Virus record (IMG/VR): IMGVR_UViG_3300017746_000009 | Coordinates: 1 to 62,781 of that record | Length of the DNA: 62,781 nt | Reading direction: 5' to 3' (one strand) | Source: a virus | Part shown: positions 18,610-59,754 of the stretch, in pieces | Numbering within the stretch: the stretch's first letter is position 1 | Layout: each line of letters begins with the position of its first letter | The notes under the pieces: generated by a model | What the model was told of the DNA's origin: nothing | Seen by the model: the letters and a program-made list of their open reading frames with translations, nothing else | Databases searched by the model: none | Program-made: the position numbers and the translations under genes

Positions 18610-20106
18610 ATGTATAAGAACTTACCGTTTTTAAATTATAATATTGACAAACACCTATTATTAATGGACTTTTTATTCAAAACTAAACCCTACGACCACC
18701 AATTAGAAGCTTTAGAAAAATCTTTTAATAAAGAAGAGTTTGCTTTATTTATGGAGATGGGTTGTGGTAAATCAAAAGTAGTTATAGATAACTTTGTACA
18801 TTTACACAGAGAAGGAAAAATAAACGGTGTGTTGATTATAGCTCCTAAAGGAGTTTATGATACATGGTATAGTAAAGAAATACCGAACCACGTACCAGAA
18901 GAAATAAATTATTACTGTGTAAAGTGGTCAAACGCTAATACAAAAAAGAAACAAAAAGAAATAGAAGGTCTCTACGAAAATGAAGAAACATTAAATATAT
19001 TTATTATGAATGTTGAGGCTCTAAGCACAAAAGTAGGAACTCAAAGAGCTACAGATTTTCTATTTAAACGAAAGTGTATGTTTATTATAGATGAAAGCAC
19101 TACTATAAAAAACCATATGGCTAAACGTACACAAAATACTGTACGGATAGGAAAGTATGCATACTATAAAAGGATCCTTACAGGCTCTCCAGTTACAAAA
19201 AGTCCTCTTGACCTATATAGCCAGTCATATTTTTTAGACCCTTCTCTGCTGGGCTTTAGTAGTTACTTTGCATTTAGAAATAGATACGCTGATTTAATCG
19301 ATAGAACACTCGGTAACGGTAGAACATTTAAACATATAGTAGGTTATAAAAACTTGACAGAACTAAATGAGAAACTAAACTCTTTTAGTTATCGTGTGTT
19401 AAAAAAAGATTGTTTAGATTTACCAGATAAAGTTTATCTTAAAAGAAAGATAGCTATGACAGATGAACAAAAACGTGTGTATAAAGATATACAGAAAAAA
19501 GCCAATGCTGTATTAACTCAAGGAACAGTTACAATCAATCACATAATAACACAGATTATACGTCTTCATCAAATATCTTGTGGGTTTGTAGGTTTAGATG
19601 GAGGAGGGATTACGGAACTTAAATCTCAAAGGTTGCCTGAGCTTTTAGAAATACTAGAAGAAACAGACGGTAAAGTAATTATCTGGGCAAATTATAGACA
19701 CGATATACAAAAAATAGAAGCAGAACTTACTAGAATATACGGACAAGGAACGGTAGGAACTTATTACGGAGATGTACCACAGGAAAGAAGAGAAGAAGTA
19801 ATTAATTTATTCCAAGATCCAGAAAGTAGTCTTAGGTTTTTTGTAGGTAACACTCAAACGGGTGGTTATGGTATAACACTTACTGAAGCAAGCACCGTAA
19901 TTTACTACAGTAACAACTATGATTTAGAAAAACGTCTGCAGTCAGAAGACCGTGCTCATCGTATAGGTCAAAAAAATAAAGTAACCTACATAGATATAGT
20001 TTGTGAACGCACCGTAGATGAAAAAATAGTAACAGCTTTACGTAGAAAACAAAATATAGCTCAAACTGTTCTAGGTGAAGACCACTGGAAAAACTGGCTT
20101 TTGTAA
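18610..20106 (+). CDS. SNF2-family (SF2) helicase/ATPase
   Basis: FMEMGCGKSKV (motif I), IIDESTTIKN (DExx box) and GNTQTGGYGITLTEASTVIYYSNNYDLEKRLQSEDRAHRIGQKNKV (motifs V-VI). It is the only plus-strand gene. Confidence 0.9.
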   Translation: MYKNLPFLNYNIDKHLLLMDFLFKTKPYDHQLEALEKSFNKEEFALFMEMGCGKSKVVIDNFVHLHREGKINGVLIIAPKGVYDTWYSKEIPNHVPEEINYYCVKWSNANTKKKQKEIEGLYENEETLNIFIMNVEALSTKVGTQRATDFLFKRKCMFIIDESTTIKNHMAKRTQNTVRIGKYAYYKRILTGSPVTKSPLDLYSQSYFLDPSLLGFSSYFAFRNRYADLIDRTLGNGRTFKHIVGYKNLTELNEKLNSFSYRVLKKDCLDLPDKVYLKRKIAMTDEQKRVYKDIQKKANAVLTQGTVTINHIITQIIRLHQISCGFVGLDGGGITELKSQRLPELLEILEETDGKVIIWANYRHDIQKIEAELTRIYGQGTVGTYYGDVPQERREEVINLFQDPESSLRFFVGNTQTGGYGITLTEASTVIYYSNNYDLEKRLQSEDRAHRIGQKNKVTYIDIVCERTVDEKIVTALRRKQNIAQTVLGEDHWKNWLL

Positions 20107-31062: not shown

Positions 31063-31506
31063 TTAAACATTCTCCCAAGGTTTATTTTCAAACAACAATG
31101 CTTCTGCTTTTCTTCTTTTTACTAAACCCTCTAACACTTCTCCGTTTGATTTATTCCATCTTTTTATCTGTGTAGGAACACCTTCATAGTCTTTACTATT
31201 CAATACTTCTAAAAGTGTAGAAGTTATTAAGTTAGTTGGTCCTAGATTATACACCCAAGAACACAAAGAATCAAACTGATATTGTTCAAGATCGACTTTA
31301 ACTAAACCATTTACATAATCTTCATACTCACACATTTCACCAATCAACATATCGTTGGCTTCTTCTTGTGTAATAGTGTCTCCTTCTTTTACATTTTTTG
31401 TATGTCCGTAACCAATAGTTAAGACACCAGCAGGACAGACATAAGCATTAAGTTCACAGCCTTCGTATTTTTTAATTAATGCTAACCCCTCTTGAGATAT
31501 TTTCAT
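31063..31506 (-). CDS. GH24 (T4/lambdoid-type) lysozyme, endolysin
   Basis: EGCELNAYVCPAGVLTIGYGHT gives the E-x8-(D/C)-x5-T catalytic arrangement of GH24 endolysins. Confidence 0.85.
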   Translation of the reverse strand: MKISQEGLALIKKYEGCELNAYVCPAGVLTIGYGHTKNVKEGDTITQEEANDMLIGEMCEYEDYVNGLVKVDLEQYQFDSLCSWVYNLGPTNLITSTLLEVLNSKDYEGVPTQIKRWNKSNGEVLEGLVKRRKAEALLFENKPWENV

Positions 31507-31507: not shown

Positions 31508-31873
31508 TTATTTTTGTTCAGTTGTTGTAACTTTCCTATAATAAACTACAACTTCTTTAAGTTCATTTATGTATCTTTTTAGTTCTTGCATATTATAAGC
31601 CATCAATTCATAATCTGGGACAGACATTGCTAGAAAAACTACTTGTCCTTGATCTTTTTCAACCCTAGCTAAAAACTCTTCTATATTTTTATCAGAAACA
31701 ACATACCAATATGGTTCTTTTAAATCAATACTTCTAGGCAAAATAGGTTGAGCTATGTTTCGCTCAATCGGTTTGCTTACTATATCTACTTGCTTAGGAA
31801 TCAGGCTGCAACTGCAGACCATCATCAAGGCTATCGATATTAGTACTGTCTTTTTCAATACTTTCAAATACAT
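31508..31873 (-). CDS. lipoprotein, candidate o-spanin (overlaps the i-spanin candidate)
   Basis: Signal/lipobox LISIALMMVCSC; an 80-nt out-of-frame overlap with the upstream TM/coiled-coil gene; position directly upstream of the endolysin. Confidence 0.45.
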   Translation of the reverse strand: MYLKVLKKTVLISIALMMVCSCSLIPKQVDIVSKPIERNIAQPILPRSIDLKEPYWYVVSDKNIEEFLARVEKDQGQVVFLAMSVPDYELMAYNMQELKRYINELKEVVVYYRKVTTTEQK

Positions 31874-32186
31874 CTTTTGTACCTTTATTTACTCTTGTTT
31901 CAATTAGTCCAGGTTTTGCTGCAGCTAATCTTGTTAAATCATGTCGTTTAAATATATCAAGGTATCTGTTCATTTCAGCTTCTATTTCTTGATTACGTAA
32001 CTGTATCTCTAATAAACCTTCTGTTTGTAAAGTAAAATCTTTCTGTAGTGATTCGATAGCTTCTTTTTGTTCTTGGTCTCTTAGTTCAAAAGCTTGGTTT
32101 AGTTTAGATAAATTAGCGTTTTGTACCCACAAAAAACTACAGAGCATTCCTAATACAACTATGATCCCTATAAATATTCTACTCAT
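31794..32186 (-). CDS. candidate i-spanin (N-terminal TM plus coiled coil)
   Basis: MSRIFIGIIVVLGMLCSFLWV is a TM segment followed by a heptad-rich periplasmic part; the architecture overlaps a lipoprotein gene. Confidence 0.5.
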   Translation of the reverse strand: MSRIFIGIIVVLGMLCSFLWVQNANLSKLNQAFELRDQEQKEAIESLQKDFTLQTEGLLEIQLRNQEIEAEMNRYLDIFKRHDLTRLAAAKPGLIETRVNKGTKDVFESIEKDSTNIDSLDDGLQLQPDS

Positions 32187-33939
32187 ATGTATATATTTTT
32201 AATTCTTCGGTTTTACCCTTCACTTTAATTGGTTTTAATAATTGTAACTTATAATTAGATTTTTGTTTAGTGTTTTCACCAATTAATAAATCAGTGCCCA
32301 CTTCTTTTGTAGCCGATTCTAATCTTGCTGCGGTATTTACTGCGTCTCCGATTGCGGTATAATCAAACCTAGATGAAGAACCCATATTACCGATTACTGC
32401 TTCTCCTGTGTTTATTCCTATTCCTATGGCTATCGCAGGTAAACCCTCTGCCTGGAGTTCTACATTAAGGTCTGACATATTTTGCCAAATATCTTGAGCA
32501 CAGTTAATTGCTGCGTCTTCATGATTTTTTAAGTTTAGTGGTGCGTTAAATATAGCCATCATTGCATCACCTATGTATTTATCTACCATACCACCGTGTT
32601 TTTGTACTGCGGTTTGTTGGGCAGTTAATGCTTTATTCATTATATACGTTACTTCTTCTGGAGTTACTGATTCAGACAAAGCTGTAAACCCCCGTACATC
32701 AGTAAATAAAAACGTAGCGTACCTTTTTTCACCACCTAGTTTTAATAGTTCAGGATTTTTTTGTAGTTGTTCTACTTGCCTAGGGTCAAGGTAATGTTCA
32801 AATTGTTTTTTAATTTGTTGTCGTAATTTATATTGCTCTCTAAAACGAAAATAAAATATTATAGACCCTACAGTAAACTGACTTATAATGCTCCAAGAAA
32901 CGTCAATTAATAGCCCTTGTTTTATGATATAGTATCCTAAAAGCGAAGTTCCTATCATAAGGAAACTAAAACTTGTAACTCCTGCAGTGACGCCAAAGTT
33001 GCTCAATACAACCCAAACTAAAAGCAGGGATATAACTAAAATTAAAACTTCAATGGCTATGCTATAGTCAGGAATAAATGGACTATTTTCTATCAATATT
33101 GATTCTGCTAGTGCTACTTGTACCTTGTGTGGTTCAAGTAACCCAACTGGGGTAGCTAGTTGAGGCATTATACCTTTAGCTGTAACGCCAATAAAAACAA
33201 ACTTATTTTCTACGTTTAATTCTTTGAGTGTAGTTTCGGGAGTATTTACCCAACTTATCCATTTTCTACCAAGTGAGTCTACTTTTACAGGAGGTAGTCC
33301 TTTTACTGTTACTTCTTCTATACCGTTTTCATTTGTTTTAATTATATAAGTCTTAGCTCCTGTAAGAGCTTTTAAAACCTGTGTACCAAAACTTGCTATC
33401 CATCCTTCAGGAGTTCTATATAAAAGGGGAATTCTTCTTACAAGGTTATCAACATCTACAGGAGCAGATGCTATCCCTTCTAAAGCATTTAATCCATCGA
33501 TGTTTTTTACTATCCCTTGTGATAAATAACCTCCTCTGCCTTCTCCTAAAATTACTGTGCCTTCTGTTTTAGGGTATACCTGATTGTCATTTTCAAACAT
33601 AGCTATAACAGAAGGAGAATATGAAAGAGCTTGTTTAAAATACTCGTCTCCGCCTAACCTATCTTTATGAGGAAAAGCTAAAACCCAACCTACTCCTAGT
33701 GCTCCTTTATTGAGAATGTCTATGTGTATGTTTGCTAAAGTTTCTCTGGGGAAAGGGTAGCCCCCAGCTTTATCTACATCTTCTTCTGTAAGATTTAATA
33801 TCACAAAATTACCAGAAGGGTCAGGTGTATCTACTAAAACATCAAAAAGTTTTAATTTTAAAATATTTAAAGCTACTGGTTGAAAAACCAAAGGAAGGGT
33901 GAATATGAAAATTAAAATAAATAAAATTCTTAGCTTCAT
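32179..33939 (-). CDS. CHASE2-sensor class III adenylate/guanylate cyclase (predicted adenylate cyclase)
   Basis: An N-terminal TM is followed by an extracytoplasmic domain of about 280 aa, three TMs (VLILVISLLLVWVV..., FSFLMIGTSLLGYYII, IISQFTVGSIIFYF), then ATFLFTDVRGFTALSE, VDKYIGDAMMAIF, IGIGINTGEAVIGNMGS and RFDYTAIGDAVNTAARLES. Confidence 0.85.
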   Translation of the reverse strand: MKLRILFILIFIFTLPLVFQPVALNILKLKLFDVLVDTPDPSGNFVILNLTEEDVDKAGGYPFPRETLANIHIDILNKGALGVGWVLAFPHKDRLGGDEYFKQALSYSPSVIAMFENDNQVYPKTEGTVILGEGRGGYLSQGIVKNIDGLNALEGIASAPVDVDNLVRRIPLLYRTPEGWIASFGTQVLKALTGAKTYIIKTNENGIEEVTVKGLPPVKVDSLGRKWISWVNTPETTLKELNVENKFVFIGVTAKGIMPQLATPVGLLEPHKVQVALAESILIENSPFIPDYSIAIEVLILVISLLLVWVVLSNFGVTAGVTSFSFLMIGTSLLGYYIIKQGLLIDVSWSIISQFTVGSIIFYFRFREQYKLRQQIKKQFEHYLDPRQVEQLQKNPELLKLGGEKRYATFLFTDVRGFTALSESVTPEEVTYIMNKALTAQQTAVQKHGGMVDKYIGDAMMAIFNAPLNLKNHEDAAINCAQDIWQNMSDLNVELQAEGLPAIAIGIGINTGEAVIGNMGSSSRFDYTAIGDAVNTAARLESATKEVGTDLLIGENTKQKSNYKLQLLKPIKVKGKTEELKIYTYE

Positions 33940-35063
33940 AAACTTTGTGTAATTTGTATAATAGAATCACTACCACCATTAACTTTGATAGTATTGGTAA
34001 CTCCATTTTGAATTAAAACTATAGTGTAGCTATTTGAGGTATCTAGGTCTAGTCTGCTGGTACTACTTACGTTTCTTATAAAGGTAAGTTGTTGACCTGT
34101 AACAAATGTAGTTATCTGTGTTTCTTTATCTTGGCCAAAATCAGTACCTGTTATCTTTACACCACTAGCGTCTTGCTCTAAGGCATCTTCTTCTTCTGAT
34201 ACAGCTAATGCATCAAGTACATTTAACATATCTTCTAAAAAATTAACATCTAATGAATCAATATCTAATTCTGTAAACTCAAGTTCTCTTTCTGATTCTA
34301 AAAAATCTTCTGCTAAATAATCTATATCTAAATCATTAAAGTCTAAGATAGAAACTTTCTTATTTGTTTTTTGATTTTTTTCTTCAATCACAACTTTTTT
34401 CTTAGGTGGTGTAACTATTAACATGTTATCTATAATATCGAGCGTAAGGTCTAAAATTACTGGTTTACTAGGGGATGACTCAAACACAGATACAGTGGTT
34501 GCTTGAAAAGGTTTATTTAACAAAACTGTGCCTGTAGCTGTAACCACTTCTATTTCACCACTAGATAAACCTAGTTCGTCGGGTAATAATATTATTAAAC
34601 TTCTTCCAAGCTCATCAACAGTTGTAGTAAAATCTGTGCCTCTTATAGCAATATTAGCTGTAGGTGTTTTTAAGTTTATATTTTGTTTGTCTATTTTATT
34701 AAAAGTTCCTGTTATAAATCGTGCTGTACCTAAACCAAAAGTTAAAGCCATTTTAGACTTACTTGGGTTAGGATCAAATATATATTCGTCTATTGTAAGT
34801 TGAGAGTGTTCTGTAAGTTTTACTTGAGAATCATCTAAAAAACGTATAGCCATTCTACCATCAGTAGTAATAGCTTCGTCATTAGATTGTATATTAAATT
34901 TTAACTTTGCGTTATAAGTTTTGTCTCTTAATATCTGAGCATTGCCATAAACTTCAGATACATCTCCAATATTAGCAACCGACTGCTGTGCCTTGATCGT
35001 TTTGGTTGACGCAGAAAGTAGAAGCAGCATTACCGCCAGATGATATAATTTTGAGCCAGTCAT
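33936..35063 (-). CDS. secreted FecR-domain protein
   Basis: Signal peptide LAVMLLLLSASTKTIKAQQ and a FecR-like core (ITTDGRMAIRFLDDSQVKLTEHSQLTIDEY...TPTANIAIRGTDF). A 4-nt ATGA overlap links it to the cyclase gene. Confidence 0.7.
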   Translation of the reverse strand: MTGSKLYHLAVMLLLLSASTKTIKAQQSVANIGDVSEVYGNAQILRDKTYNAKLKFNIQSNDEAITTDGRMAIRFLDDSQVKLTEHSQLTIDEYIFDPNPSKSKMALTFGLGTARFITGTFNKIDKQNINLKTPTANIAIRGTDFTTTVDELGRSLIILLPDELGLSSGEIEVVTATGTVLLNKPFQATTVSVFESSPSKPVILDLTLDIIDNMLIVTPPKKKVVIEEKNQKTNKKVSILDFNDLDIDYLAEDFLESERELEFTELDIDSLDVNFLEDMLNVLDALAVSEEEDALEQDASGVKITGTDFGQDKETQITTFVTGQQLTFIRNVSSTSRLDLDTSNSYTIVLIQNGVTNTIKVNGGSDSIIQITQSL

Positions 35064-35700
35064 TGTTTTGAGTACTTAATTGGTTTATCGTAAAGTTTCT
35101 TTGTCCGCCTGTGTGATCTAACCAAAAGTAACCACCTGAAGAAGCTGTGACACCTGTTCCAGTATACGTCACAGTATTATCACTACCGTCTATATCCATG
35201 TAATTAGTAGCTCCGTCAATATTTATACTTGATGTTACTGTGTTATTAGAACCCTGAATAATCCAATCTAGATCTAAAGTAGCAGCAAGAGCAGAAGTAG
35301 CTTGGTTTAGTGTAAGTGCATTAGAAGCTCCAGTTACTTGAACATTTACATTTGAGTTATTAGCACCATAGGTATTAGTAGGATCTGTTTGCATAGTGAA
35401 ATTGTTTGAGTTTCCAGAAAAGTTGAAATAACCTGTATAGCTATCTGCGGTAATATCTCCTCTGAATATGTTACTACCACCTATTTGATTTATATCAAGA
35501 GTCATAGAAGTACCGTCTAAATCAAGAGGGGTCATATTTGATGCACCAGTAGCAGCAGTTAAACCACCTATGAGGTTTCCTCCCCCCATTTGCTCTATAT
35601 CAAGATTAGCTCCTGTTCCTGATTGATCGATATATATCTCATTATCAGAAAAAACCGTAGTCGTAAACAGAAGCGATAAAATAAATAATCCCTTTTTCAT
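34972..35700 (-). CDS. secreted curlin-repeat-like protein (CsgA/CsgB analogue)
   Basis: Signal peptide MKKGLFILSLLFTTTVFS. Q/N-G-N repeats include IDQSGTGANLDIEQMGGGNLIGG (compare CsgA LNIYQYGGGNSA), LDINQIGGSNIF and VQVTGASNALTLNQ. It lies next to csgG. Confidence 0.55.
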   Translation of the reverse strand: MKKGLFILSLLFTTTVFSDNEIYIDQSGTGANLDIEQMGGGNLIGGLTAATGASNMTPLDLDGTSMTLDINQIGGSNIFRGDITADSYTGYFNFSGNSNNFTMQTDPTNTYGANNSNVNVQVTGASNALTLNQATSALAATLDLDWIIQGSNNTVTSSINIDGATNYMDIDGSDNTVTYTGTGVTASSGGYFWLDHTGGQRNFTINQLSTQNNDWLKIISSGGNAASTFCVNQNDQGTAVGC

Positions 35701-35731: not shown

Positions 35732-36553
35732 TTATTTTTTTAAAACCCAATATTCTTTTTCGTACCCTATTTTAATTAATTCTAATACTGCTCCTTCTAT
35801 AGCTTTTTGTAGAGCTATAGTTGAACTTTCATTATACGCATTACCAAGTTCTAATTCAAGTAGTTCGGTGCCTAATTCAATAAATCTAAATACATCTTGA
35901 GACTGACCATAACTTAATATAGTTTTTTCAGTCATTACTTCTATAAGTATTTCACCAGTAGCTACTGATACCATCCTAAGACTTATAGTTACAACATCTT
36001 CTTTATATTGTGTACTTGCCCCTATACCAAGATACCTTGCCCCTACACCTCCTGTTCTTACATTTGAATCATAAGAAACAACAGCTCCTTGCATTATAAC
36101 ACCAGCAAATAATAAAGGCATTAATTTTTTACTTTCTTTTTCTTCGTTGTTTGAAGCCTGTCGTGTAGAGCGTATTAACTGTCTTTCTTTAGTTAAGTTA
36201 TCTAAACCGACCCTTTCTACTACTCTAAAAAATTTACCGTTTGAAGCGTGTTTTAAGGCTCTTATAAGTAAGGCATTAGGTGCTTGAGTTACTGCTGTGC
36301 TAAATAAAGCAAACTCACCGTTACTCTTTCTTTGCCCTGTTTGATCAGTAAAACTCGTAGGATATACTGCAACTACTGGTTGAGTTTTTGGTGGAGTTAC
36401 GTTTGCAAGATCTTTTGACTGTAAAGATAATATACTTGAAAAACTGTGTTCTTCTGTTTCTGCATATTCATGAAGAACCGAAGTAGTTTTAAATAAACTA
36501 CAACTAGAAAGTAAAAGAATTGATAGGAAGAGTAATACTGGTTTCAGTTCCAT
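35732..36553 (-). CDS. csgG: CsgG-family curli secretion channel lipoprotein
   Basis: Lipobox LLLSSC. Block-wise identity to E. coli CsgG: FSTAVTQAPNALLIRALK ~ FSTAVPQSATAMLVTALK; ERVGLDNLTKERQLIRS ~ ERQGLQNLLNERKIIRA; SYDSNVRTGGVGARYLGIGASTQY ~ GYESNVKSGGVGARYFGIGADTQY; ATGEILIEVMTEKTILSYGQSQDVFRFIE ~ STGEILSSVNTSKTILSYEVQAGVFRFID. Confidence 0.9.
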   Translation of the reverse strand: MELKPVLLFLSILLLSSCSLFKTTSVLHEYAETEEHSFSSILSLQSKDLANVTPPKTQPVVAVYPTSFTDQTGQRKSNGEFALFSTAVTQAPNALLIRALKHASNGKFFRVVERVGLDNLTKERQLIRSTRQASNNEEKESKKLMPLLFAGVIMQGAVVSYDSNVRTGGVGARYLGIGASTQYKEDVVTISLRMVSVATGEILIEVMTEKTILSYGQSQDVFRFIELGTELLELELGNAYNESSTIALQKAIEGAVLELIKIGYEKEYWVLKK

Positions 36554-37007
36554 CTTGTTCTATTACCGTAAGAGTTATAAATTGTCCGTCGCTAGAATAG
36601 GATATATTATTCCCTTCGAGACTAATTGTTCCAGAAGTGTTGCTATCTTCACCAAATAAATTATTTACTAGTTGTCTAGAAAGTTCAGCGTACACTCTGC
36701 TTTCAAGATTTCGTATAAACCTAGCTACCGTAGAGCTTTCTTTTTCTCTTTCAAGATCTTCGATTTGTTGTTGTAAAGCTTCTTCAATAGCTTTTTTTCT
36801 ACTTGCCTCTTGATTTTCTATAGTTAAATAATGAGAAGAAGTTTGTTCTCCAGAAAAACTTGGTGATTTAAAATTAAAAGTTATTTCTTCTGCAGCAAGA
36901 TTTTGTACATGACTGAATGCTACAGCAAAAAGTATAAAGACAATACCGATTATACCAAACCAATATTCAATTTTTCTTTCTATTTCTGTTTTCTTTCTTT
37001 TCATCAT
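36504..37007 (-). CDS. csgF: CsgF-like curli assembly component
   Basis: A signal/TM segment is followed by ITFNFKSPSFSGEQ (E. coli CsgF TFQFRNPNFGGNP) and the C-terminal DGQFITLTVIEQDGTETSITLP (CsgF [21 protein letters not shown]). A 50-nt overlap links it to csgG. Confidence 0.65.
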   Translation of the reverse strand: MMKRKKTEIERKIEYWFGIIGIVFILFAVAFSHVQNLAAEEITFNFKSPSFSGEQTSSHYLTIENQEASRKKAIEEALQQQIEDLEREKESSTVARFIRNLESRVYAELSRQLVNNLFGEDSNTSGTISLEGNNISYSSDGQFITLTVIEQDGTETSITLPINSFTF

Positions 37008-37230
37008 CTTTTAATTCAAGTACAGTGTTTACTTTTTCTTGTAATCTTATCATATCTTGATCTAAAAGACGTAATTGATCTGTAAGCCTAATAATAGTAC
37101 TTTTCATTTCTTCTACTGCAGGGTCTATAGTATTAGTTATTGTTTGCCAAACATAGTAAACAAAATAACCTAACCCCACAACCATAACTACAGGAAAACC
37201 AAAATCGGCAACTATTTGAACTATGTCCAT
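36967..37230 (-). CDS. small N-terminal-TM coiled-coil protein, paralogue of 37230-37523
   Basis: MDIVQIVADFGFPVVMVVGLGYFVYYVW aligns with MEIFNLIAEVGVPIAGALVMAYFIFLVM of the upstream ORF; both carry the D.IR(I/L) and L(D/E)LK motifs. Confidence 0.6.
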   Translation of the reverse strand: MDIVQIVADFGFPVVMVVGLGYFVYYVWQTITNTIDPAVEEMKSTIIRLTDQLRLLDQDMIRLQEKVNTVLELKDDEKKENRNRKKN

Positions 37231-37523
37231 TAGTCTCTCCTAGCATCAATTTTACCATCTTCTACAAAGTTTTCTGCTCTTGCTATTCTATCTAAATCTG
37301 GTTTTAAATCTAATGCACTTGAAACACTTGTGTCAATTCTAATAATATCATTATTCATAATAGAAGCTCTAGTGATTAGCATTTTAGTTATTCCTTGTAC
37401 GGTTTTTATTTCACTTACTAAACCTTCCATAAGTTGTTTCATAACTAAAAATATAAAATAAGCCATAACTAATGCACCAGCTATAGGAACACCTACCTCA
37501 GCAATGAGGTTAAATATTTCCAT
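37230..37523 (-). CDS. small N-terminal-TM coiled-coil protein, paralogue of 36967-37230
   Basis: See the paralogue entry; 1-nt overlaps to both neighbours. Confidence 0.6.
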   Translation of the reverse strand: MEIFNLIAEVGVPIAGALVMAYFIFLVMKQLMEGLVSEIKTVQGITKMLITRASIMNNDIIRIDTSVSSALDLKPDLDRIARAENFVEDGKIDARRD

Positions 37524-37873
37524 TAGTTTTCGCCTTTAAATTTTTTGCTTTGTCCTGAGGTGCCTGCGTAAATACCAAAAACTGCTGCCATCGCTCCTAC
37601 TACTATAGAGACTAAGGCTGATTGTTCTAGGTTAGGTTCAGGTAAAGCCATAAACCATATTACTACTTTGTAAAGAAGCACTATATAAACACTTACGAAT
37701 ACTCTTGGAAATATTCGCCAAGCATCAACGGTTTTAGCTAGATGTACCCATTTTATAAACGGATTATCTCCGTTATTTTTAGGATTTACATCTATGTCTA
37801 ATTCAAGTTTTCTTTTTATAGGTGTTTCTTTTTCTACTATAGTATTGTCAGTAATGATTTTTTCTTCGCTCAT
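37523..37873 (-). CDS. two-TM membrane protein, holin candidate
   Basis: TM segments VFVSVYIVLLYKVVIWFMAL and ALVSIVVGAMAAVFGIYAG precede a basic C-terminus SGQSKKFKGEN. It lies upstream of the spanin and endolysin genes. Confidence 0.4.
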   Translation of the reverse strand: MSEEKIITDNTIVEKETPIKRKLELDIDVNPKNNGDNPFIKWVHLAKTVDAWRIFPRVFVSVYIVLLYKVVIWFMALPEPNLEQSALVSIVVGAMAAVFGIYAGTSGQSKKFKGEN

Positions 37874-42767: not shown

Positions 42768-45056
42768 TTAAGCTACCTCTTCCCAATTAGGTGTTTGAGT
42801 CTTTGTTACATCGCTGTAATTAGCTGTTTGTGTCGTGTCTACACTACTATAATTTGCAGTTTGACTGGTATCTACTAAGCCCCAAACAGTAACTCTTGGT
42901 TCTCCTAAAGTACCTACAACCCCTATTGGTATTACTTTGGCATTTAAAAGTACAGTTACATCACCTATAGCAGAAGTTCCTGCGTTTCCAGTAACTGCGG
43001 TTACTGCTCCTGCTGTTACTGTTTCATCACCTAAAGAAGAAGTAGAAGCTACAGCAGATACACCAGTAACTGCTACTGCTTGTACTGCTACCTCACCTTG
43101 TGCTGTTGTTCCTACATTCCCAGTTAATGCTGTACTAGCACCTGCTGTTACTGTTTCGTCACCTAAACTAGAAGTACCTTCAAGTCCTTCTTCTACTATT
43201 AGAGCTCCTGCTGCTACTGTTTGGTTTCCTAATGCTGAAGTACCTAAGTTACCAGTGACCGCTATATTAGCACCACACACAACACTCTCATCACCTAAAC
43301 CTGACGTAGAAGTGGTCGCTGTAACACCTTGTACTGCGTCTCCTTCAACTACTATATTACCTAAAGTAGAAGTTCCTACATTACCTGCTGGTGTTATAAG
43401 TGACTTCGCTACGACAGTTTCGCTTCCTAACGCTGAAGTTGCAGAGTTGCCTGTCACAGAAACTACCTTCGGAAGTAAAACCGACTCGTCTCCTAATTCA
43501 GTAGTAGCTGTTACTCCTTCTTCTACTATTAAAGCTCCTGCAGTAACTGTTTCAGTTCCTAATGAAGTAGTCGCTACGTTCCCAGTAACGCTTATATTAG
43601 CAGTACATACAACACTTTCATCACCTAAACCAGAAGTAGAAGTAGTCGCTGTAACCCCTTGCACTGCGTCTCCTTCAACCGTTACGTTACCTGTTGCAGA
43701 AACACCTGTTGTGCCTGACGGTATTGTAACCGACTTCGCAATTATTGTTTCACTTCCTAAAGCTGAAGTTCCTACATTACCTGTGGTAGAAACTATTTTA
43801 GGAATTACTACTTCTTCATCACCTAATGCTGAAGTTCCTGTAACTCCTTCTTCTACTATTAATGCTTTAGCAACAATAGTCTCATCACCTAATGACGAAC
43901 TTCCTGTATTACCTGTAACCGAAGCTATTTTCGGGAGACTTATTGATTCATCGCCTAATGCTGTAGTACCTATAACTCCGTCTTCTACAACTACTGCTCC
44001 TGCGGCAATTGTTTCACTTCCTAAAGCTGAAGTTCCTACATTGCCTGTAACTGAAACTATTTTCGGGAGGCTTATTGATTCATCGCCTAACGCAGTAGTT
44101 CCTACGTTTCCTGTGACAGAAACAACAACTGAGTCAGTACTAGAAACAAGTACCGTACCTAATCCTGATGTTGCTGCATTTCCGGTAACACTTGTATTAG
44201 CAGCACAAGCAACACTTTCGTCTCCTAAACCTGACGTAGATGAAGTAGCAGATACTCCTTGTACTGCTTCACCTACTACAACCGAGCTACCTAATCCAGA
44301 AGTTCCAGCTAATCCTGTTTCTACGATTAACGCTTTAGCTACAACAGTTTCACTACCTAAAGAAGTAGTTGCGGTATTACCTGTAACCGAAAATATTTTA
44401 GGAATTACAACAGATTCAGTACCTAGTGCCGTAGTTCCCGCAGTTCCCGTAACTGAAACATTAGCTGCACAAGATACGCTTTCATCTCCTAGACCTGAAG
44501 TAGAACTTGTTGCTGATACTCCTTGTACCGCTTCACCAATAACGACTGAGCTACCAAGTCCACTACTAGAAGTGTTACCTGATACTGCAATTAATGATTT
44601 TGCTACTACACTTTCAGTACCTAATGCAGAAGTACCTGCACTTCCTGTGACTAAAACTGTTTTAGGAATTACTACTTCTTCGTTTCCTAAGGAAGTAGTT
44701 CCTACATTACCTGAAACCGAAACATTAGCAGCACAAGAGACACTTTCATCACCTAAACCAGAGGTAGAGGTAGTCGCTGATACTCCTTGTACCGCTTCTC
44801 CGATTACAACTGAACTACCTAATCCAGTTGTTCCTGAAAGTCCTGTTTCTACAACCGTAGCATTACAGCTTACAGAAACAGAACCTAATCCGCTTGTAGC
44901 GGCAATTCCATCTTCTACTACATTAGCAGAACATAGAACAGTTTCTGAACCAAGTGCTGATGTGCTGTTAACACCTGTAACACTTACATCAACAGAAACT
45001 GCTGCGGGCTGACCCCACGGACCTGAGCCCCATGTGGATCGACCCCAACCTGCCAT
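42768..45056 (-). CDS. highly repetitive fibre-like structural protein (762 aa, about 30 copies of a 22-aa unit)
   Basis: Core unit (S/V)TGN.GT(S/T)(A/S)LG(D/S/T)E(S/T)V. Nested longer repeats include GLGSSVVIGEAVQGVSATSSTSGLGDESVSCAANVSV x3 and VEGDAVQGVTATTSTSGLGDESVVC x2. Confidence 0.75.
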   Translation of the reverse strand: MAGWGRSTWGSGPWGQPAAVSVDVSVTGVNSTSALGSETVLCSANVVEDGIAATSGLGSVSVSCNATVVETGLSGTTGLGSSVVIGEAVQGVSATTSTSGLGDESVSCAANVSVSGNVGTTSLGNEEVVIPKTVLVTGSAGTSALGTESVVAKSLIAVSGNTSSSGLGSSVVIGEAVQGVSATSSTSGLGDESVSCAANVSVTGTAGTTALGTESVVIPKIFSVTGNTATTSLGSETVVAKALIVETGLAGTSGLGSSVVVGEAVQGVSATSSTSGLGDESVACAANTSVTGNAATSGLGTVLVSSTDSVVVSVTGNVGTTALGDESISLPKIVSVTGNVGTSALGSETIAAGAVVVEDGVIGTTALGDESISLPKIASVTGNTGSSSLGDETIVAKALIVEEGVTGTSALGDEEVVIPKIVSTTGNVGTSALGSETIIAKSVTIPSGTTGVSATGNVTVEGDAVQGVTATTSTSGLGDESVVCTANISVTGNVATTSLGTETVTAGALIVEEGVTATTELGDESVLLPKVVSVTGNSATSALGSETVVAKSLITPAGNVGTSTLGNIVVEGDAVQGVTATTSTSGLGDESVVCGANIAVTGNLGTSALGNQTVAAGALIVEEGLEGTSSLGDETVTAGASTALTGNVGTTAQGEVAVQAVAVTGVSAVASTSSLGDETVTAGAVTAVTGNAGTSAIGDVTVLLNAKVIPIGVVGTLGEPRVTVWGLVDTSQTANYSSVDTTQTANYSDVTKTQTPNWEEVA

Positions 45057-51502: not shown

Positions 51503-51952
51503 TTATTGTACATCTTCTGGGTTATTCACCACAGCAAGTACTTCATCATCGTTTAATAAGCGCAAGTCACCACCATCAATTTTGATCCTAGCTCCTGCGT
51601 ATCTTCCAAAAATAATCCAATCTCTTTCTTGGCACCAGGCACCGTTAGGAAATTTATTCTTATCTTTGTAAGCATCTGGTCCTAATGATACTACGAATCC
51701 TACATTAGTACCTAATCTTTCTTTTTCTAAATATGAATCAGCTAAGTGTATTCCACCTTTAGTAACGGATTTTTGAGTAAAAGGAAGGATTAATATTCTA
51801 TACCCTGTCGGGTCTGGTAGTTTTTCTATAAGAGATTCGTCTTCTTCAATAGTTTCTGGTGTAAACTTATCTTCTATGATAGGTTCTACAGGTTTATCTT
51901 TAAACCTGTCTACATGATCAGGTATTTTTTTCTCTTGAGTTGCATCAGTCAT
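51503..51952 (-). CDS. GroES-like co-chaperonin with an acidic N-terminal extension of about 45 aa
   Basis: YRILILPFTQKSVTKGGIHLADS..ERLGTNVGFVVSLGPDA ~ GroES [23 protein letters not shown]...TRGEVLAVGNG. RDWIIFGRYAGARIKIDGGDLRLLNDDEVLAVV ~ [34 protein letters not shown]. Confidence 0.7.
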   Translation of the reverse strand: MTDATQEKKIPDHVDRFKDKPVEPIIEDKFTPETIEEDESLIEKLPDPTGYRILILPFTQKSVTKGGIHLADSYLEKERLGTNVGFVVSLGPDAYKDKNKFPNGAWCQERDWIIFGRYAGARIKIDGGDLRLLNDDEVLAVVNNPEDVQ

Positions 51953-52169
51953 CTTCTTGCTCCTTGATGTTTTGCAGGTCTATTATAATTCTTTCAGCAG
52001 AACTTAGACCAGAGAGTTCTCCTAAAACTTTATTATAGCTGTTCCAGTCTTGTACACCACCAGTTGCTAATAAATCTGTTAATTCTTCTTTTCTTTTACG
52101 TACTTCTCTTAATGTTTTTTCTACTATGTATAAACCGTCCATCAGCACTTCCACTGTCTTCGTGACCAA
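51945..52169 (-). CDS. hypothetical protein (74 aa)
   Basis: 8-nt overlap with the GroES-like gene; coiled-coil character. Confidence 0.55.
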   Translation of the reverse strand: MVTKTVEVLMDGLYIVEKTLREVRKRKEELTDLLATGGVQDWNSYNKVLGELSGLSSAERIIIDLQNIKEQEDD

Positions 52170-52408
52170 TAGTTAGCCTTTGTTTTATCACTACCTAAAC
52201 CACTGCTACGAGCACAGTAAGACCTTTTTCTCTTTTTATCTCCAGGATGTGCACCTAGATTAGGATCACCAAAAGTTACTCTTTTTATATTCCCTGTTTT
52301 AGGATCTTTTACAAAAACTTCTCTAGTTTTCTTGCCATATCCAGGTTTTCCTTTCCCTATCCTTCTTGGTTTATTTAAAGTAACTTGTTTTCCTTTATAT
52401 TCTGCCAT
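52142..52408 (-). CDS. small basic protein (88 aa)
   Basis: KGKQVTLNKPRRIGKGKPGYGKKTREVFVKDPKTGNIKRVTFG; Lys/Arg-rich throughout. Confidence 0.55.
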   Translation of the reverse strand: MAEYKGKQVTLNKPRRIGKGKPGYGKKTREVFVKDPKTGNIKRVTFGDPNLGAHPGDKKRKRSYCARSSGLGSDKTKANYWSRRQWKC

Positions 52409-52410
52409 TT

Positions 52411-52785
52411 TTAAGCGTATTTAGTTTTTTTCCTACGGTTAGGCATAACAGCTCCGCATCCTCTAGAAAATTCACCGCCACTTTTCATAGGTTTAGGTAT
52501 AACTCCTTTTCCCATTAAAATATCTTTTTGAGTAATTTTTCCATCACCACTTAGGTCTGGAAACTTACCCCCATCTTTCATCATTTTTATTTCACCGCCA
52601 TATGCTGCTGCCTTTTTAGGTTTTTTAGCAGTTTTTGCTGCAGCTTTAAAATCAGCAGCAGAAGGTGCACCTTTAGCTCCTTTTTTACGCATTTTTTTAC
52701 CAGCTTTTTTCTTTTTATTAATATTATAATAAAGTCCTTTTTTAGCTGTTCTACCGTCTTTTGTTTTATGTGTTGGTTTTGGCAT
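52411..52785 (-). CDS. highly basic Lys/Ala/Gly-rich protein (124 aa)
   Basis: MPKPTHKTKDGRTAKKGLYYNINKKKKAGKKMRKKGAKGAPSAADFKAAAKTAKKPKK. Confidence 0.55.
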   Translation of the reverse strand: MPKPTHKTKDGRTAKKGLYYNINKKKKAGKKMRKKGAKGAPSAADFKAAAKTAKKPKKAAAYGGEIKMMKDGGKFPDLSGDGKITQKDILMGKGVIPKPMKSGGEFSRGCGAVMPNRRKKTKYA

Positions 52786-52786
52786 T

Positions 52787-53461
52787 TTATTCCTCGTATA
52801 GATTGTTAAAAGTAATAGCAGGATCTAGATAAGTTTCATGACTTTCTGCGGAGTGTGTATGTTGAGAAGGTTTAAAGTCTGGTGCTCCTTCGCCTGTTAC
52901 CCAAAGAGCAGGGCTAGTTGCTCTTACTCTATTATTAGGTAATGCTACAAAGTTACCTTTCCACTTGCCTTCGTCTGTAATATACATAACATGAGATTGT
53001 TTGTGTTGAGCCGAATCATCAGCTATATCACTATTTGTATAATCTACAGTAAACATATATTTACCATTATAAAACTTTCCATCAATTTTGCATAGCCATG
53101 GACTTGAACTTACTCGATCCATAACTATAATTGAATGATCTCTTGACTCACAATCCCAAGGTTGACATAAATGATCTTCCATAGCATCGGGATATTCTTT
53201 GCTGGGTATATCAGCTACTAATGCTTGTATTGGCATTCTTGCCCACATAGCACCACCGTGTATATTACCTTCGTCCCAGTCTTCACAATTTGATTCATAG
53301 CCTGTAAAGACTACTTGAAAACTTAATGAACGATCAGGTATTGTATTAACAGCAATCGCTAGAGCGTGAAGATATTCGCCATGATATTTTTCATGATTGT
53401 GTGTAAATTCTCTTCTCACCCAACACTTAAAGTGAGGGATATTACTGATAAGGTGTGCCAC
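52787..53461 (-). CDS. hypothetical protein (224 aa, GTG start)
   Basis: ORF in the array; the GTG at 53461 abuts the stop of the small basic ORF. Confidence 0.6.
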   Translation of the reverse strand: MAHLISNIPHFKCWVRREFTHNHEKYHGEYLHALAIAVNTIPDRSLSFQVVFTGYESNCEDWDEGNIHGGAMWARMPIQALVADIPSKEYPDAMEDHLCQPWDCESRDHSIIVMDRVSSSPWLCKIDGKFYNGKYMFTVDYTNSDIADDSAQHKQSHVMYITDEGKWKGNFVALPNNRVRATSPALWVTGEGAPDFKPSQHTHSAESHETYLDPAITFNNLYEE

Positions 53462-53560
53462 CTACTTCTTTTTCTTTCTAGTTGTTTTACGTTTGCTCTT
53501 TTTACGTGCTGCTCCACCTTTGGACATTTTACGCATAGAACCGTATTTACTTTTTTTCAT
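53462..53560 (-). CDS. possible 32-aa Lys/Arg-rich peptide (not in the ORF track)
   Basis: GGGGATAAACC precedes the ATG at 53560. My translation is MKKSKYGSMRKMSKGGAARKKSKRKTTRKKKK, and the TAG stop directly abuts the next GTG start. Confidence 0.35.
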   Translation of the reverse strand: MKKSKYGSMRKMSKGGAARKKSKRKTTRKKKK

Positions 53561-53563
53561 GGT

Positions 53564-53938
53564 TTATCCCCATACTTTAGTTTTTGTTCCGCCCCAATAT
53601 TCAACAGCATGGTCTTCGTCAATTAATTTTTGACAAACATCTTCTCCGTTTACAAATGGAACGCCTAAAATCCTACCGTATTTACCCTTACCTAAAGATT
53701 TAATCTGTAGTGTATCGGTTGTACATATTTCTATAAGTCTTTCTTTAGCTTTTAAACCTAATGCTTTTTCTGCTAAGTTTCTTGTTCTGCTTTCTGGTGT
53801 ATCTATACCAGCTAATCTAACTCTTTGTTTATGAAGTTTTATATCAAACCCTAAATCCAAAGTTACGTCAATAGTGTCACCATCTATTACTCTATCTAAC
53901 ACAGCGTTATAAACAAAGGAATCAGGAGAAGAACTCAT
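53564..53938 (-). CDS. staphylococcal (micrococcal) nuclease-like thermonuclease
   Basis: VIDGDTIDV, RVRLAGIDTPE, GKYGRILG and a C-terminal DEDHAVEY match the SNase motif order. Confidence 0.8.
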   Translation of the reverse strand: MSSSPDSFVYNAVLDRVIDGDTIDVTLDLGFDIKLHKQRVRLAGIDTPESRTRNLAEKALGLKAKERLIEICTTDTLQIKSLGKGKYGRILGVPFVNGEDVCQKLIDEDHAVEYWGGTKTKVWG

Positions 53939-53942
53939 AAAT

Positions 53943-54140
53943 TTATCTTACACCGCTTGAGCTAGTGTTGTATTTAACACCTTTTGTAGCTTTACCTTTA
54001 CCTTGAACTGTGCTTTGACCCTGACCGAAGATATCGCTATTAGTTTTAGTTAAAACTACCGTACCTTTAACTGGTTTTGATAAATCAATTTTATCAGGAG
54101 CAGGAACACTAACTTTTTTAAATTTAGTTGTATCTTTCAT
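53943..54140 (-). CDS. hypothetical protein (65 aa)
   Basis: 1-nt overlap with the portal gene stop. Confidence 0.5.
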   Translation of the reverse strand: MKDTTKFKKVSVPAPDKIDLSKPVKGTVVLTKTNSDIFGQGQSTVQGKGKATKGVKYNTSSSGVR

Positions 54141-56533: not shown

Positions 56534-56549
56534 TTATGTTTCCCGTGCG

Positions 56550-58064
56550 TTAATAGTAACTTATTTTCTTCTTATATAAAACCTCTTCTTCATAATCAGA
56601 AGGAAGCTGTATAAACCCACCTTGTCTAAACCTTAACATTGCTTGTGTTGTTGAGTCAACTAAATCATCGTGGTCACCTGCTGGAAACGCAGCACACTCT
56701 TCAATAACTTCTTGTGCCCATGTTGTATCAGGATACCAAACCATGCCAGACTCGAACAATGGAGCACAAGCATTGACTCTTGATATCTTGTCATTACCAC
56801 GAGAAGGTGTAAAATTCTGCACAGGTATACCTACGTTTCTTAGTTCTTGAGTGAGAGGCATACCAGAAGCTTTACCTTCTATTATGACACTGTCAGGTTC
56901 CCAATGTTCATACTGTTCTAAAGCAAGAGCTTTGAGTTCTGGAAAATTATATCTTCCTTTAATTACATCTAGTAGAATAATATGCGGTGCATTACCGTGA
57001 TATATTTCTTCGCCACCTAGTCTACCTTCTGGATAAAATACTCCCCAAGTAGTGATCGCTGAATAATCTGCCATCTCTGATTTTAAAAACGCAGTATCGT
57101 AACTTTGAATAATATAATCACATTGAGGAGGTTCTCTATTTGGCCATTCTTTCCACCATTCTCTTTTAATTAGTGCTCCTTCTTCTGAAGTTGGATTCTG
57201 CATGTATTGTGCGTGCCACTTAGGACCGCCACGTAAAGAAGCTTTTACACTTTCTAATTCTTCTATACTCCAATAACTTTCCCACAGCGGTTTACCACTA
57301 GGTAAAATAGCAGGTAGCTCAATAAGTTCCCATTGATCTGCTTTAGGATCACGTGCGGCATCTTGTAATAAACGACCTGTTAAATCATTTACGTTCCACC
57401 TTGTCATTACAATTACGATTGCTCCTCCTGGCTGAAGACGTTGTCGTGGACCAGAAGTGTACCACTCATAAGTATCTTCCATAGATTTAGGATTCATTGC
57501 GTCTTGCTCAGAGTGTGGGTCGTCGATTATAAATAAATCGGCACCACGTCCAGCTAACGCACCACCCACACCTGCTGCATAGTATTCGCCTTTAAGTTTT
57601 GGATTACGCTTATCTTGTGTTTCCCATTTACCTGCTGCTTTACTGTCTGGGTTTATAAGGACGTTGTCAAAAACTTTTTCAAAGTCTTCCATTAACATAA
57701 GGTCACGGATTTTACGACCAAACTTTACAGCAAGGTCGGCGGTGTGAGTTGCTTGTAATATTTTAAGTGAAGGATTACGACCAACTAAATAAGCAGGGAA
57801 CATGTGCGACGCAAACTCTGACTTAGTGTGTCGAGGAGGCATGTTAATAATTAGACGTTTTATTTTACCGTCAGCTATACGGTCAAAGGCTTCTGCCATA
57901 ACTTTGTGATGAGCACCTTCAATAAAACTTGGCCACTGAGTACGGACAAAAGATAGAAAGTTTTTTTGAGCTTTTTCTACTTTTTCAAGTTCTTCTAGTC
58001 TTTCTGCTAGTTCTAGGTGTTCTTTGAGAACATCTTCTGAAAGATTCTCTAAGTTATTTTCCAT
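56550..58064 (-). CDS. terL: terminase large subunit
   Basis: A Walker A-like element INMPPRHTKSEF, Walker B ADLFIIDDPHSE, the coupling motif VMTRWN, and C-terminal RNaseH-like nuclease acidic residues (IQSYDTAF, GDHDDLVDSTTQA). Confidence 0.85.
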   Translation of the reverse strand: MENNLENLSEDVLKEHLELAERLEELEKVEKAQKNFLSFVRTQWPSFIEGAHHKVMAEAFDRIADGKIKRLIINMPPRHTKSEFASHMFPAYLVGRNPSLKILQATHTADLAVKFGRKIRDLMLMEDFEKVFDNVLINPDSKAAGKWETQDKRNPKLKGEYYAAGVGGALAGRGADLFIIDDPHSEQDAMNPKSMEDTYEWYTSGPRQRLQPGGAIVIVMTRWNVNDLTGRLLQDAARDPKADQWELIELPAILPSGKPLWESYWSIEELESVKASLRGGPKWHAQYMQNPTSEEGALIKREWWKEWPNREPPQCDYIIQSYDTAFLKSEMADYSAITTWGVFYPEGRLGGEEIYHGNAPHIILLDVIKGRYNFPELKALALEQYEHWEPDSVIIEGKASGMPLTQELRNVGIPVQNFTPSRGNDKISRVNACAPLFESGMVWYPDTTWAQEVIEECAAFPAGDHDDLVDSTTQAMLRFRQGGFIQLPSDYEEEVLYKKKISYY

Positions 58065-59031: not shown

Positions 59032-59183
59032 ATCAAAAATAAATTTTGCAAAAAAATTTTTACACTCTGTTTTCTAACGATAGTGTAGTTCGCATAGTCG
59101 GAAAAGTAAATATCTTATCTAATGTCTCTTTAAAACTGAGCCGAAGGCTTACGTATGTTAGCCTTCGTTAAGGGGGTTAGGGG

Positions 59184-59222
59184 TAAAAAAATAGGGGCTA
59201 ACTAGTAGCCCCTAAATTTTTT
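59184..59222. terminator. Bidirectional-type rho-independent terminator after ORF 59233-59457
   Basis: The stem pairs taggggct (59192-59199) with agccccta (59207-59214) around a 7-nt loop. It is flanked by an A-run (59185-59191) and a T-run (59217-59222). Confidence 0.65.
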
Positions 59223-59232
59223 ACTAAGTTTT

Positions 59233-59457: not shown

Positions 59458-59528
59458 AATATTTACCGTATATAAAGGCTATTTATTAAAGTTACTAAAT
59501 ACCGCCTTTTTTAATATTTAGTAAAGCT

Positions 59529-59558
59529 ATTATAAAACTTTTTTTATTTAAAAGTAAA
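59529..59558 (-). promoter_or_regulatory. sigma70-like promoter candidate TTTACT-N18-TATAAT upstream of ORF 59233-59457
   Basis: Minus strand: TTTACT (59558-59553) and TATAAT (59534-59529). The aaaagtaaagg element is duplicated at 59550 and 59574. Confidence 0.3.
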
Positions 59559-59727: not shown

Positions 59728-59754
59728 TACACCATGGTCCATAGTTCATGGATC

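Follow-up and report, generated by a model that had tools for sequence, protein, structure and literature searches.

A CHASE2-class III nucleotide cyclase, predicted to produce cAMP, encoded in the curli-secretion cassette of a SAR11-type podophage

The cyclase gene and its predicted substrate

The subject of this study is a gene on the minus strand of the IMG/VR virus record IMGVR_UViG_3300017746_000009, a stretch of 62,781 nucleotides that was analysed over its whole length (the window). The gene is the last of a cassette that is encoded on one strand in the order p97-p87-CsgF-CsgG-curlin-like-FecR-cyclase, and it is followed by phage lysis genes (Table 1). In a PHROG profile search, phrog_35576 spanned the full length of the product (E 3e-116). 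Pfam identified a CHASE2 domain (PF05226, residues 14-306; E 3.3e-22, score 79.7 bits with a threshold of 26.3) and a Guanylate_cyc domain (PF00211, residues 408-583; E 1.2e-19, score 71 bits with a threshold of 21.9). Together with the fold match given below, these domains bear out the initial annotation of this DNA, which had described a phage-encoded class III cyclase of the receptor type with a CHASE2 domain.

Two hydrophobic segments (residues 1-29 and 287-324) were observed by hydropathy. The AlphaFold2 model (mean pLDDT 82.6) contained helices at residues 3-19, 293-314, 317-340, and 348-379, with a mixed alpha/beta extracytoplasmic domain between the first and second transmembrane (TM) segments and a short helical transducer segment before the cyclase domain. 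According to hydropathy and the model helices, one TM segment lies before the extracytoplasmic domain and three lie after it, which is the CHASE2 topology that had been proposed initially. The linker segment behind the three-helix bundle aligned with the stretch of Synechocystis Cya2 that bears the FGRY motif of the cyclase-transducer element (CTE) (phmmer alignment; PMC5995499). When the model was compared with solved structures using Foldseek, it matched Cya2, CyaC, and CyaB (TM-score 0.84-0.85; root-mean-square deviation, rmsd, 1.7-2.3 Å); the matches were dominated by the catalytic domain, and no solved structure was matched for the CHASE2 part within the top 50.

The best match of the protein among the PDB sequences was Cya2 (phmmer; E 2e-34 for 6FHT, an E488K fusion, and E 6e-30 for 2W01), followed by Pseudomonas aeruginosa CyaB (E 1.5e-26), bPAC/OaPAC, and Spirulina CyaC. 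Since the E value to Cya2 was 2e-34, the homology to cyclases is far beyond chance. The motifs quoted in the initial annotation were all found in the translation, namely FTDVRGFT at residue 412, VDKYIGDAMMA at residue 452, and RFDYTAIGDAVNTAARLES at residue 524. In the alignment to Cya2, CyaB, and bPAC, the metal ligands were D414 (in FTDVRGF) and D458 (in IGDAMM), and the transition-state residues were N535 and R539 (in AVNTAARLES), exactly where they had been placed. The protein thus combines a PF00211 match above threshold, the class III fold, and the aligned pair of Asp residues, Asn, and Arg that define a class III cyclase.

The first base-specifying residue is K454 in VDKYIGD, which aligned with Glu488 of Cya2 and also matched the Lys of 6FHT, the E488K adenylate cyclase variant (phmmer alignment). 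Glu488 specifies GTP in Cya2, and the single change E488K makes Cya2 an adenylate cyclase (PMC5995499). Since K454 sits at the position of Glu488, where E488K gives an adenylate cyclase, ATP is the predicted substrate, and the specificity for ATP that had been proposed initially holds through this residue. Guanylate cyclase specificity, which had been raised by Cya2 being the best solved match, was rejected on K454.

The second base-specifying residue is T528 in DYTAIGDAVN, seven residues before the catalytic N535; we take this site to correspond to D1018 relative to N1025 of mammalian AC2. The same column holds Thr in CyaB (DYTIIG) and bPAC (DHTLLG), and Gly in Cya2 (phmmer alignments; PMC4215837). 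The base-specifying residues of Cya2 have been published as an 'E-G pair' (PMC4215837), and the site seven residues before the catalytic Asn fits this pair because the Gly of Cya2 aligns there. The initial annotation had read a Lys/Asp pair, taking the Asp from RFDYTAIGD. Both Asp residues of that motif, D526 and D532, lie off the site, and the pair was therefore misassigned. The alignment to characterised cyclases thus confirmed the catalytic Asp, Asn, and Arg residues and the Lys, but it gave Thr and not Asp as the second specificity residue. A change from Asp to Thr at this site partly defines class IIIb, and the Lys/Thr pair is the signature of that class and is specific for ATP (PMC2613629). 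With Lys at the first and Thr at the second position, the phage protein is predicted from its sequence to be a class IIIb, ATP-specific cyclase with cAMP as the product. Since all six catalytic residues are found in one chain, the enzyme may assemble as a homodimer, which would have two complete active sites.

The Pycsar anti-phage system was considered as another identity and was rejected. The PycC profiles of PADLOC matched the catalytic domain as a generic cyclase fold (best E 1e-28). The entry 7R65, which we take to be a solved Pycsar cyclase, scored 21 bits in phmmer, as compared to 122 bits for Cya2. No Pycsar-type effector with a cyclic nucleotide monophosphate (cNMP)-binding domain was found in a Pfam scan of about 64 open reading frames (ORFs) of the window, and the cyclase gene sits in a phage cassette.

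The curli-secretion cassette, the FecR-domain protein, and the lysis genes

The coordinates of the cyclase gene, its parts, and its neighbours are collected in Table 1. The cassette contains what appears to be a minimal set of type VIII secretion system (T8SS) genes. CsgG carries a lipobox-like LSSC sequence near its N terminus. The curlin-like repeat protein had no Pfam or PHROG match; its gene and the curlin-annotated genes of the phages HTVC008M and Melnitz are syntenic. The full CsgF-CsgG-repeat-FecR set was found, in the same order, in all 13 viral loci with enough upstream sequence. The cassette is not a complete curli system, with only CsgG and CsgF matching profiles; no members of the CsgE, CsgC, or CsgD families were found among the scanned ORFs of the window, and the curlin family PF07012 was likewise unmatched. 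The two small proteins p97 and p87 are paralogues (blastp E 1e-10), and their homologues precede CsgF in the podophage loci as well as in HTVC008M and Melnitz. As a separate observation, the curlin-like and FecR ORFs share 92 nt in different frames (34972-35063, minus strand), and a comparable overlap of about 80-90 nt is seen in many related loci.

Table 1 Positions in the window of the cyclase gene, its parts, and the neighbouring genes (aa, amino acids; TM1, first TM segment)
Feature	Position	Strand	Basis
CHASE2-class IIIb adenylate cyclase gene (predicted)	32179-33939	-	ATG start, 586 aa plus stop; Pfam, PHROG, AlphaFold2
Periplasmic CHASE2 sensor domain, aa 14-306; TM1 (aa 3-19) before it	33022-33900	-	PF05226, model
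Three-helix TM bundle, aa about 290-365	32845-33072	-	hydropathy, model helices
Linker and CTE-like segment, aa 366-403, IKKQFEHYLDPRQV...LGGE	32731-32844	-	conservation, Cya2 alignment
Class III cyclase catalytic domain, aa 404-586	32182-32730	-	phmmer, Foldseek, residue conservation
Secreted FecR-domain protein, 375 aa	33936-35063	-	PF04773 E 7.7e-9; phrog_37870
Curlin-like repeat protein, 242 aa, signal peptide	34972-35700	-	repeated h-x-h-x-Q-x-G-x-x-N motifs
CsgG outer-membrane pore lipoprotein	35732-36553	-	PF03783 E 2e-48; NCBIfam CsgG E 2e-50
CsgF	36504-37007	-	PF10614 E 9.5e-17; phrog_35372
p87, single TM segment and coiled coil	36967-37230	-	phrog_18771; weak holin PHROG match
p97, single TM segment and coiled coil	37230-37523	-	phrog_18771; paralogue of p87
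p116, two-TM candidate holin	37523-37873	-	two hydrophobic helices
i-spanin	31794-32186	-	Rz-like spanin PHROGs (phrog_739 and phrog_812 across the two spanins)
o-spanin	31508-31873	-	Rz-like spanin PHROGs (phrog_739 and phrog_812 across the two spanins)
Endolysin, T4-lysozyme type	31063-31506	-	Phage_lysozyme E 3.6e-46

The gene directly upstream of the cyclase encodes a protein with a signal-peptide-like N terminus, no TM segment, and a periplasmic FecR domain alone, and its stop overlaps the start of the cyclase gene by 4 nt (ATGA). In 47 of the 48 viral loci, this gene lies upstream of the cyclase, at times with an additional 0.6-1.8 kb between the two. Among 80 loci around the closest cellular CHASE2 cyclases, 22 also had a FecR-domain ORF in the vicinity, in many cases as the immediate neighbour and often encoding a large FecR/cadherin/RTX protein just upstream. 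These cellular cyclases are about 30% identical to the phage protein and come mostly from Alphaproteobacteria. Related pairs have been published: an operon of Burkholderia and Pseudomonas combines a LysM-FecR protein with a CHASE2 histidine kinase, and a cluster of Campylobacterota groups a CHASE2 cyclase with a FecR-domain protein, a phosphodiesterase, and a tetratricopeptide repeat (TPR) protein. The phage pair resembles the cellular pairs in that a secreted FecR-domain protein is encoded beside a CHASE2 membrane sensor. The cellular pairs differ, however, in that CsgG and CsgF were found in 0 of 80 loci and in that the partners carry other C-terminal domains. The link to the T8SS therefore appears to be phage-specific, with synteny as its sole basis.

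Signalling of the Fec type (FecA-FecR-FecI) for iron was also considered and was rejected, as the phage FecR protein has neither an anti-sigma domain nor a TM segment. The Pfam scan of the window detected no TonB-dependent receptor and no extracytoplasmic function (ECF) sigma factor (Sigma70_r2); a weak Sigma70_r4 match was seen in one ORF outside the cassette. From its sequence and by analogy with the cellular pairs, the FecR protein is better explained as a periplasmic partner of CHASE2 than as an iron regulator.

Very large secreted proteins of 1,200-2,500 aa were observed before CHASE2 cyclases of this closest cellular group, on the same strand, in three alphaproteobacterial loci (L084, L129, and L162; Methyloligellaceae, Bradyrhizobium, and others). 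In these proteins, cadherin-like, Big_9, or RTX repeats come after a FecR domain at the N terminus, which suggests that cellular CHASE2 sensors have partners of the surface or adhesin type.

The genes of the region follow each other in the order p116, cassette, i-spanin, o-spanin, and endolysin. The stop of the cyclase gene and the i-spanin ORF overlap by exactly 8 nt (ATGAGTAG), as had been stated initially, and the ORFs downstream match Rz-like spanin PHROGs. Homologues of spanin or lysozyme were found within 2.5 kb downstream of the cyclase in 33 of the 48 loci. In six loci (L036, L039, L044, L057, L066, and L070), a p116 homologue lies directly downstream of the cyclase. This arrangement fits p116 being a holin and the lysis module having received the T8SS-cyclase cassette as an insertion on one side of p116 or the other. 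The overlaps further suggest that the cassette is co-transcribed with the lysis genes, and its expression is presumably late.

Conservation and relation to known phages and cyclases

The conservation of single residues was evaluated by aligning 83 viral homologues. D414, D458, K454, and R539 were present in 83 of 83 sequences and N535 in 82, while position 528 held Thr in 75, Ser in seven, and Asp in one. The linker and transducer segment (residues 376-403) was the most conserved part of the protein (mean 0.91). The pairwise ratios of nonsynonymous to synonymous substitution rates (dN/dS) of the cyclase were 0.11-0.16 and were low in the sensor and catalytic halves alike (0.04-0.26 for the CHASE2 domain and 0.06-0.13 for the catalytic domain). 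The cyclase is under purifying selection. Since the catalytic residues are nearly invariant and dN/dS is low in both halves, a pseudo-enzyme is unlikely.

At least 587 contigs of IMG/VR encode relatives of the cyclase. In a metagenome protein collection clustered at 90% identity, it matched more than 6,600 clusters at E < 1e-10. The best 120 of these clusters were all at least 67% identical to the cyclase and all came from marine data.

The identity to the closest IMG/VR relative (L003) falls from about 92% to about 66% at the nucleotide level near position 32700 (codon about 413). The drop coincides exactly with the point where the conserved transducer segment gives way to the catalytic domain, and the identity stays lower through the spanins, so that it looks like a recombination junction inside the cyclase gene. 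Another relative (L005) showed the reverse pattern, the sensor half being more diverged than the catalytic half.

The presence of a cyclase in these phages is not new, since Wittmers et al. (2022; PMC9599517) described the cassette including an adenylate cyclase; the cyclase family and the cassette are already known in SAR11-type phages. The novelty of a phage receptor cyclase had been overstated in the initial annotation, because the adenylate/guanylyl cyclase of HTVC008M has been annotated since 2013, in addition to the report of Wittmers et al. Those authors recovered 80 genomes of HTVC023P-type podophages and found that the curli cluster has been transferred between podophages and myophages, is of alphaproteobacterial origin, and is distributed globally. 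They also obtained metatranscriptome evidence for the expression of the viral Curli protein and the associated FecR, and viral Curli proteins accounted for about 0.1% of the assembled viral proteins in GOV2.0. The window shares with their cluster the gene family, the gene order, and the HTVC023P-type podophage lineage, its large terminase subunit (TerL) being closest to those of the Pelagibacter podophage HTVC027P (62% identity) and HTVC023P (57%). It differs in that the second curlin gene, which is optional and lies between FecR and the cyclase, is absent. FecR was labelled as an iron regulator and the small upstream proteins as histidine kinases in PMC9599517, whereas no histidine-kinase domain was detectable in p97 and p87 by Pfam and NCBIfam profile scans. 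CHASE2 and the specificity residues are not mentioned in that paper.

CsgF and CsgG have also been reported in pelagimyophages (Zaragoza-Solas et al. 2020), and the curli pore (CsgGF) of Melnitz has been proposed to act in lysis timing, the cyclase being unmentioned (Buchholz et al. 2022). The annotations of HTVC008M (host Pelagibacter) and Melnitz (host OM43) comprise CsgF, CsgG, a curlin-associated protein, FecR, and an adenylate/guanylate cyclase. Their cyclases (AGE60353 and gp104, respectively) are full-length homologues of the protein studied here, with 33% identity over 95-96%, and lie in the same cassette including the homologues of p97 and p87. These two phages differ in being T4-like Kyanoviridae, in having an extra gene between FecR and the cyclase, and in carrying the cassette away from the lysis genes. 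Position 528 holds Ser in the homologue of HTVC008M. A megablast search with the 7.5-kb region gave no match in GenBank phages, and protein matches of the cyclase and CsgG in GenBank phages were obtained in HTVC008M and Melnitz alone, with none in a podophage. The transcriptome paper PMC12753301 contains no data on curli or cyclase genes, and a search of the literature on cAMP/CRP signalling in SAR11 and on phage-encoded class III cyclases found nothing usable.

Among cellular systems, CyaD1, CyaD2, and CyaK of Sinorhizobium meliloti are CHASE2 cyclases that sense a protein signal through NsrA, a beta-barrel protein of the outer membrane. Like the phage protein, they combine CHASE2 with a class III cyclase, and S. 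meliloti belongs to the Alphaproteobacteria, as do the bacteria with the nearest cellular relatives of the phage protein. They differ in that their output goes to the CRP-like protein Clr, of which the phage encodes none, and in that NsrA is not CsgG; the two systems are likened by description. Cya2 (2W01) has the same CHASE2-TM-CTE-cyclase architecture and is the best solved match (rmsd 1.8 Å, TM-score 0.84), but it carries a Glu/Gly pair and makes cGMP, whereas the phage protein carries Lys/Thr and is predicted to make cAMP. The class IIIb enzymes CyaB (3R5G), Spirulina CyaC (1WC1), and bPAC are close in the catalytic part, with the Thr shared by CyaB and bPAC and a TM-score of 0.85 to CyaC and CyaB; they differ from the phage cyclase in their sensor domains, which are MASE2 in CyaB and BLUF in bPAC. 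Responsiveness to CO2/bicarbonate is typical of class IIIb enzymes.

What is added here to these reports is incremental: the assignment of CHASE2 and class IIIb, the reading of FecR as a probable CHASE2 partner, and the finding that the cassette lies within the lysis module. That the so-called histidine kinases p97 and p87 are without a kinase domain is a further, modest addition.

Besides TerL, the window encodes a portal protein, DNA polymerase, primase, helicases, and a tail fibre; nearly all genes lie on one strand, and no integrase families were seen among the ORFs scanned with Pfam. Positions 1-123 are repeated exactly at 62659-62781. Since this 123-nt terminal repeat is exact, the genome is complete (circularly assembled or terminally redundant), with a length of about 62,658 bp.

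Several further features of the genome were observed. The helicase gene at 18610-20106 (phrog_62, E 4e-123) is the only clear plus-strand gene, and both GC skew and AT skew switch sign in the 2-kb bin that contains it. A 762-aa ORF on the minus strand (42768-45056) had no PHROG match and has an opposite-strand ORF of 691 aa (42937-45012) inside it; nowhere in the window is the GC content higher than in this region (about 0.40). The ORFs of 539-20850 and 51503-62357 gave matches related to DNA hypermodification, namely a 5-hydroxymethyldeoxyuridine (5-hmdU) DNA kinase, a thymidylate synthase, a TET-associated glycosyltransferase, and a YfbR-like 5'-deoxynucleotidase. Several 2-oxoglutarate (2OG)-Fe(II) oxygenases, a Cpn10 co-chaperonin, and a weak match to an ETX/MTX2 pore-forming toxin were found in the same set of ORFs.

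Possible roles of the cyclase in infection

The initial annotation had connected the cyclase with catabolite control and competence, among other processes; the cassette context frames its function more than these do. On the evidence described above, we consider it reasonably probable that the protein is a FecR-coupled, CHASE2-gated class IIIb adenylate cyclase that is tied to the T8SS set of the phage and signals by cAMP. The transcription and action of this system would be as described below. The cassette would be expressed together with the lysis genes, late in the infection of a SAR11-type host that itself has no T8SS. The cyclase would pair with the secreted FecR-domain protein, which is encoded just upstream and is translationally coupled to it, and this pair would be joined to the minimal T8SS set comprising the CsgG pore, CsgF, the curlin-like protein, and the two small membrane proteins. 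Most probably, FecR and CHASE2 would sense in the periplasm the condition of the envelope or that of the CsgG/fibre apparatus built by the phage, or else a cue arriving from outside. CHASE2 would then gate the cyclase activity through the three-helix membrane bundle and the CTE, so that the periplasmic cue is converted to cytoplasmic cAMP acting on host effectors. The catalytic competence of the cyclase is predicted from the sequence and the structural model, whereas the FecR-CHASE2 interaction, the signal that is sensed, and the effectors on which cAMP acts are what we infer from the context.

Several observations weigh against this interpretation. The cyclase and the second curlin gene are missing from part of the podophage cassettes (PMC9599517); the T8SS part can thus work without the cyclase. 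In the homologue of Melnitz, Asp occupies position 528 and Ser replaces the catalytic Asn. No cNMP-binding, CRP, or phosphodiesterase domain was found by Pfam in the about 64 ORFs of the window; since the window encodes no cNMP-binding or CRP domain, any receptor of cAMP must be supplied by the host. A scan for promoters and terminators at 30.5-39 kb gave nothing above background, so that the argument for co-transcription comes from the gene overlaps alone. Finally, neither CsgG nor CsgF occurs near the closest cellular cyclases in the 80 loci.

The cyclase might instead serve as a sensor for lysis timing or superinfection, in which periplasmic events such as the opening of the CsgG pore or the arrival of a second phage would act through cAMP to advance or delay lysis; this proposal differs from the interpretation above in the physiological output only. 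It draws on the embedding of the cassette in the lysis module between the candidate holin p116 and the spanin and endolysin genes, the 8-nt overlap with the i-spanin gene, the lysis homologues downstream in 33 of the 48 loci, the weak match of p87 to a holin PHROG, and the proposal of Buchholz et al. for the CsgGF pore. However, the cassette of the myophages lies between the region of the gene for single-stranded DNA-binding protein and the tail and baseplate genes, and there is no homologous lysis gene downstream in 15 of the 48 podophage loci. Besides, no route from cAMP to holin triggering is known, and no cAMP effector encoded by the phage was found among the about 64 ORFs scanned with Pfam. 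Such an output is considered unlikely. An active cyclase whose cAMP is not an intracellular messenger, but drains ATP, interferes with the cyclic-nucleotide immunity of the host, or is released at lysis as a signal to neighbouring cells, would agree with the lack of a cAMP receptor in the phage ORFs scanned and with the presumably late expression beside the lysis genes. An elaborate and conserved arrangement of sensor, TM segments, and transducer under purifying selection points rather to regulated signalling than to a constitutive use of ATP, and we hold a role of this kind to be quite improbable.

The product might also be other than cAMP, that is cGMP as in Cya2 or a cyclic pyrimidine as in Pycsar cyclases, given that the guanylate cyclase Cya2 is the best PDB match and that the PycC profiles matched the catalytic domain. 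This is very unlikely, since K454 replaces the GTP-specifying Glu and is Lys in 83 of 83 homologues, the E488K change converts Cya2, position 528 is occupied by Thr or Ser, in line with the adenylate cyclases of class IIIb, and no Pycsar-type cNMP-binding effector was found among the about 64 ORFs of the window scanned with Pfam. As for a degenerate or regulatory pseudo-cyclase that would act as a scaffold of the T8SS/FecR complex, the replacement of Asn by Ser at the transition-state position in Melnitz and the optional nature of the cyclase in some cassettes are compatible with it, but the six catalytic residues are intact and nearly invariant in the 83 homologues, with a dN/dS of 0.06-0.13 in the catalytic domain; we give this explanation hardly any credence.

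Beyond the FecR-coupled adenylate cyclase favoured here, the cassette as a whole could be a sensory relay across the envelope that was built by the virus, and not a factory of curli fibres with accessory regulators. This more speculative view is one that we hold to be doubtful at present. At the outer membrane, the CsgG/CsgF pore and the curlin-like protein would display a cue or let it in, the FecR protein would carry it across the periplasm to CHASE2, and the cyclase would convert it to cAMP, which would set the timing of lysis or reprogramme a SAR11 host lacking a T8SS. If this were true, FecR-domain proteins would be general ligand-presenting partners of CHASE2 sensors.

The phages that carry this gene have SAR11 as their host or are similar to phages that do. 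No marine bacteria are more abundant than SAR11, and relatives of the cyclase are very common in ocean data. A receptor cyclase encoded by a phage would give infected cells a new sensory input together with a second-messenger output, and cAMP signalling driven by the phage could affect lysis timing, aggregation, and carbon flow.

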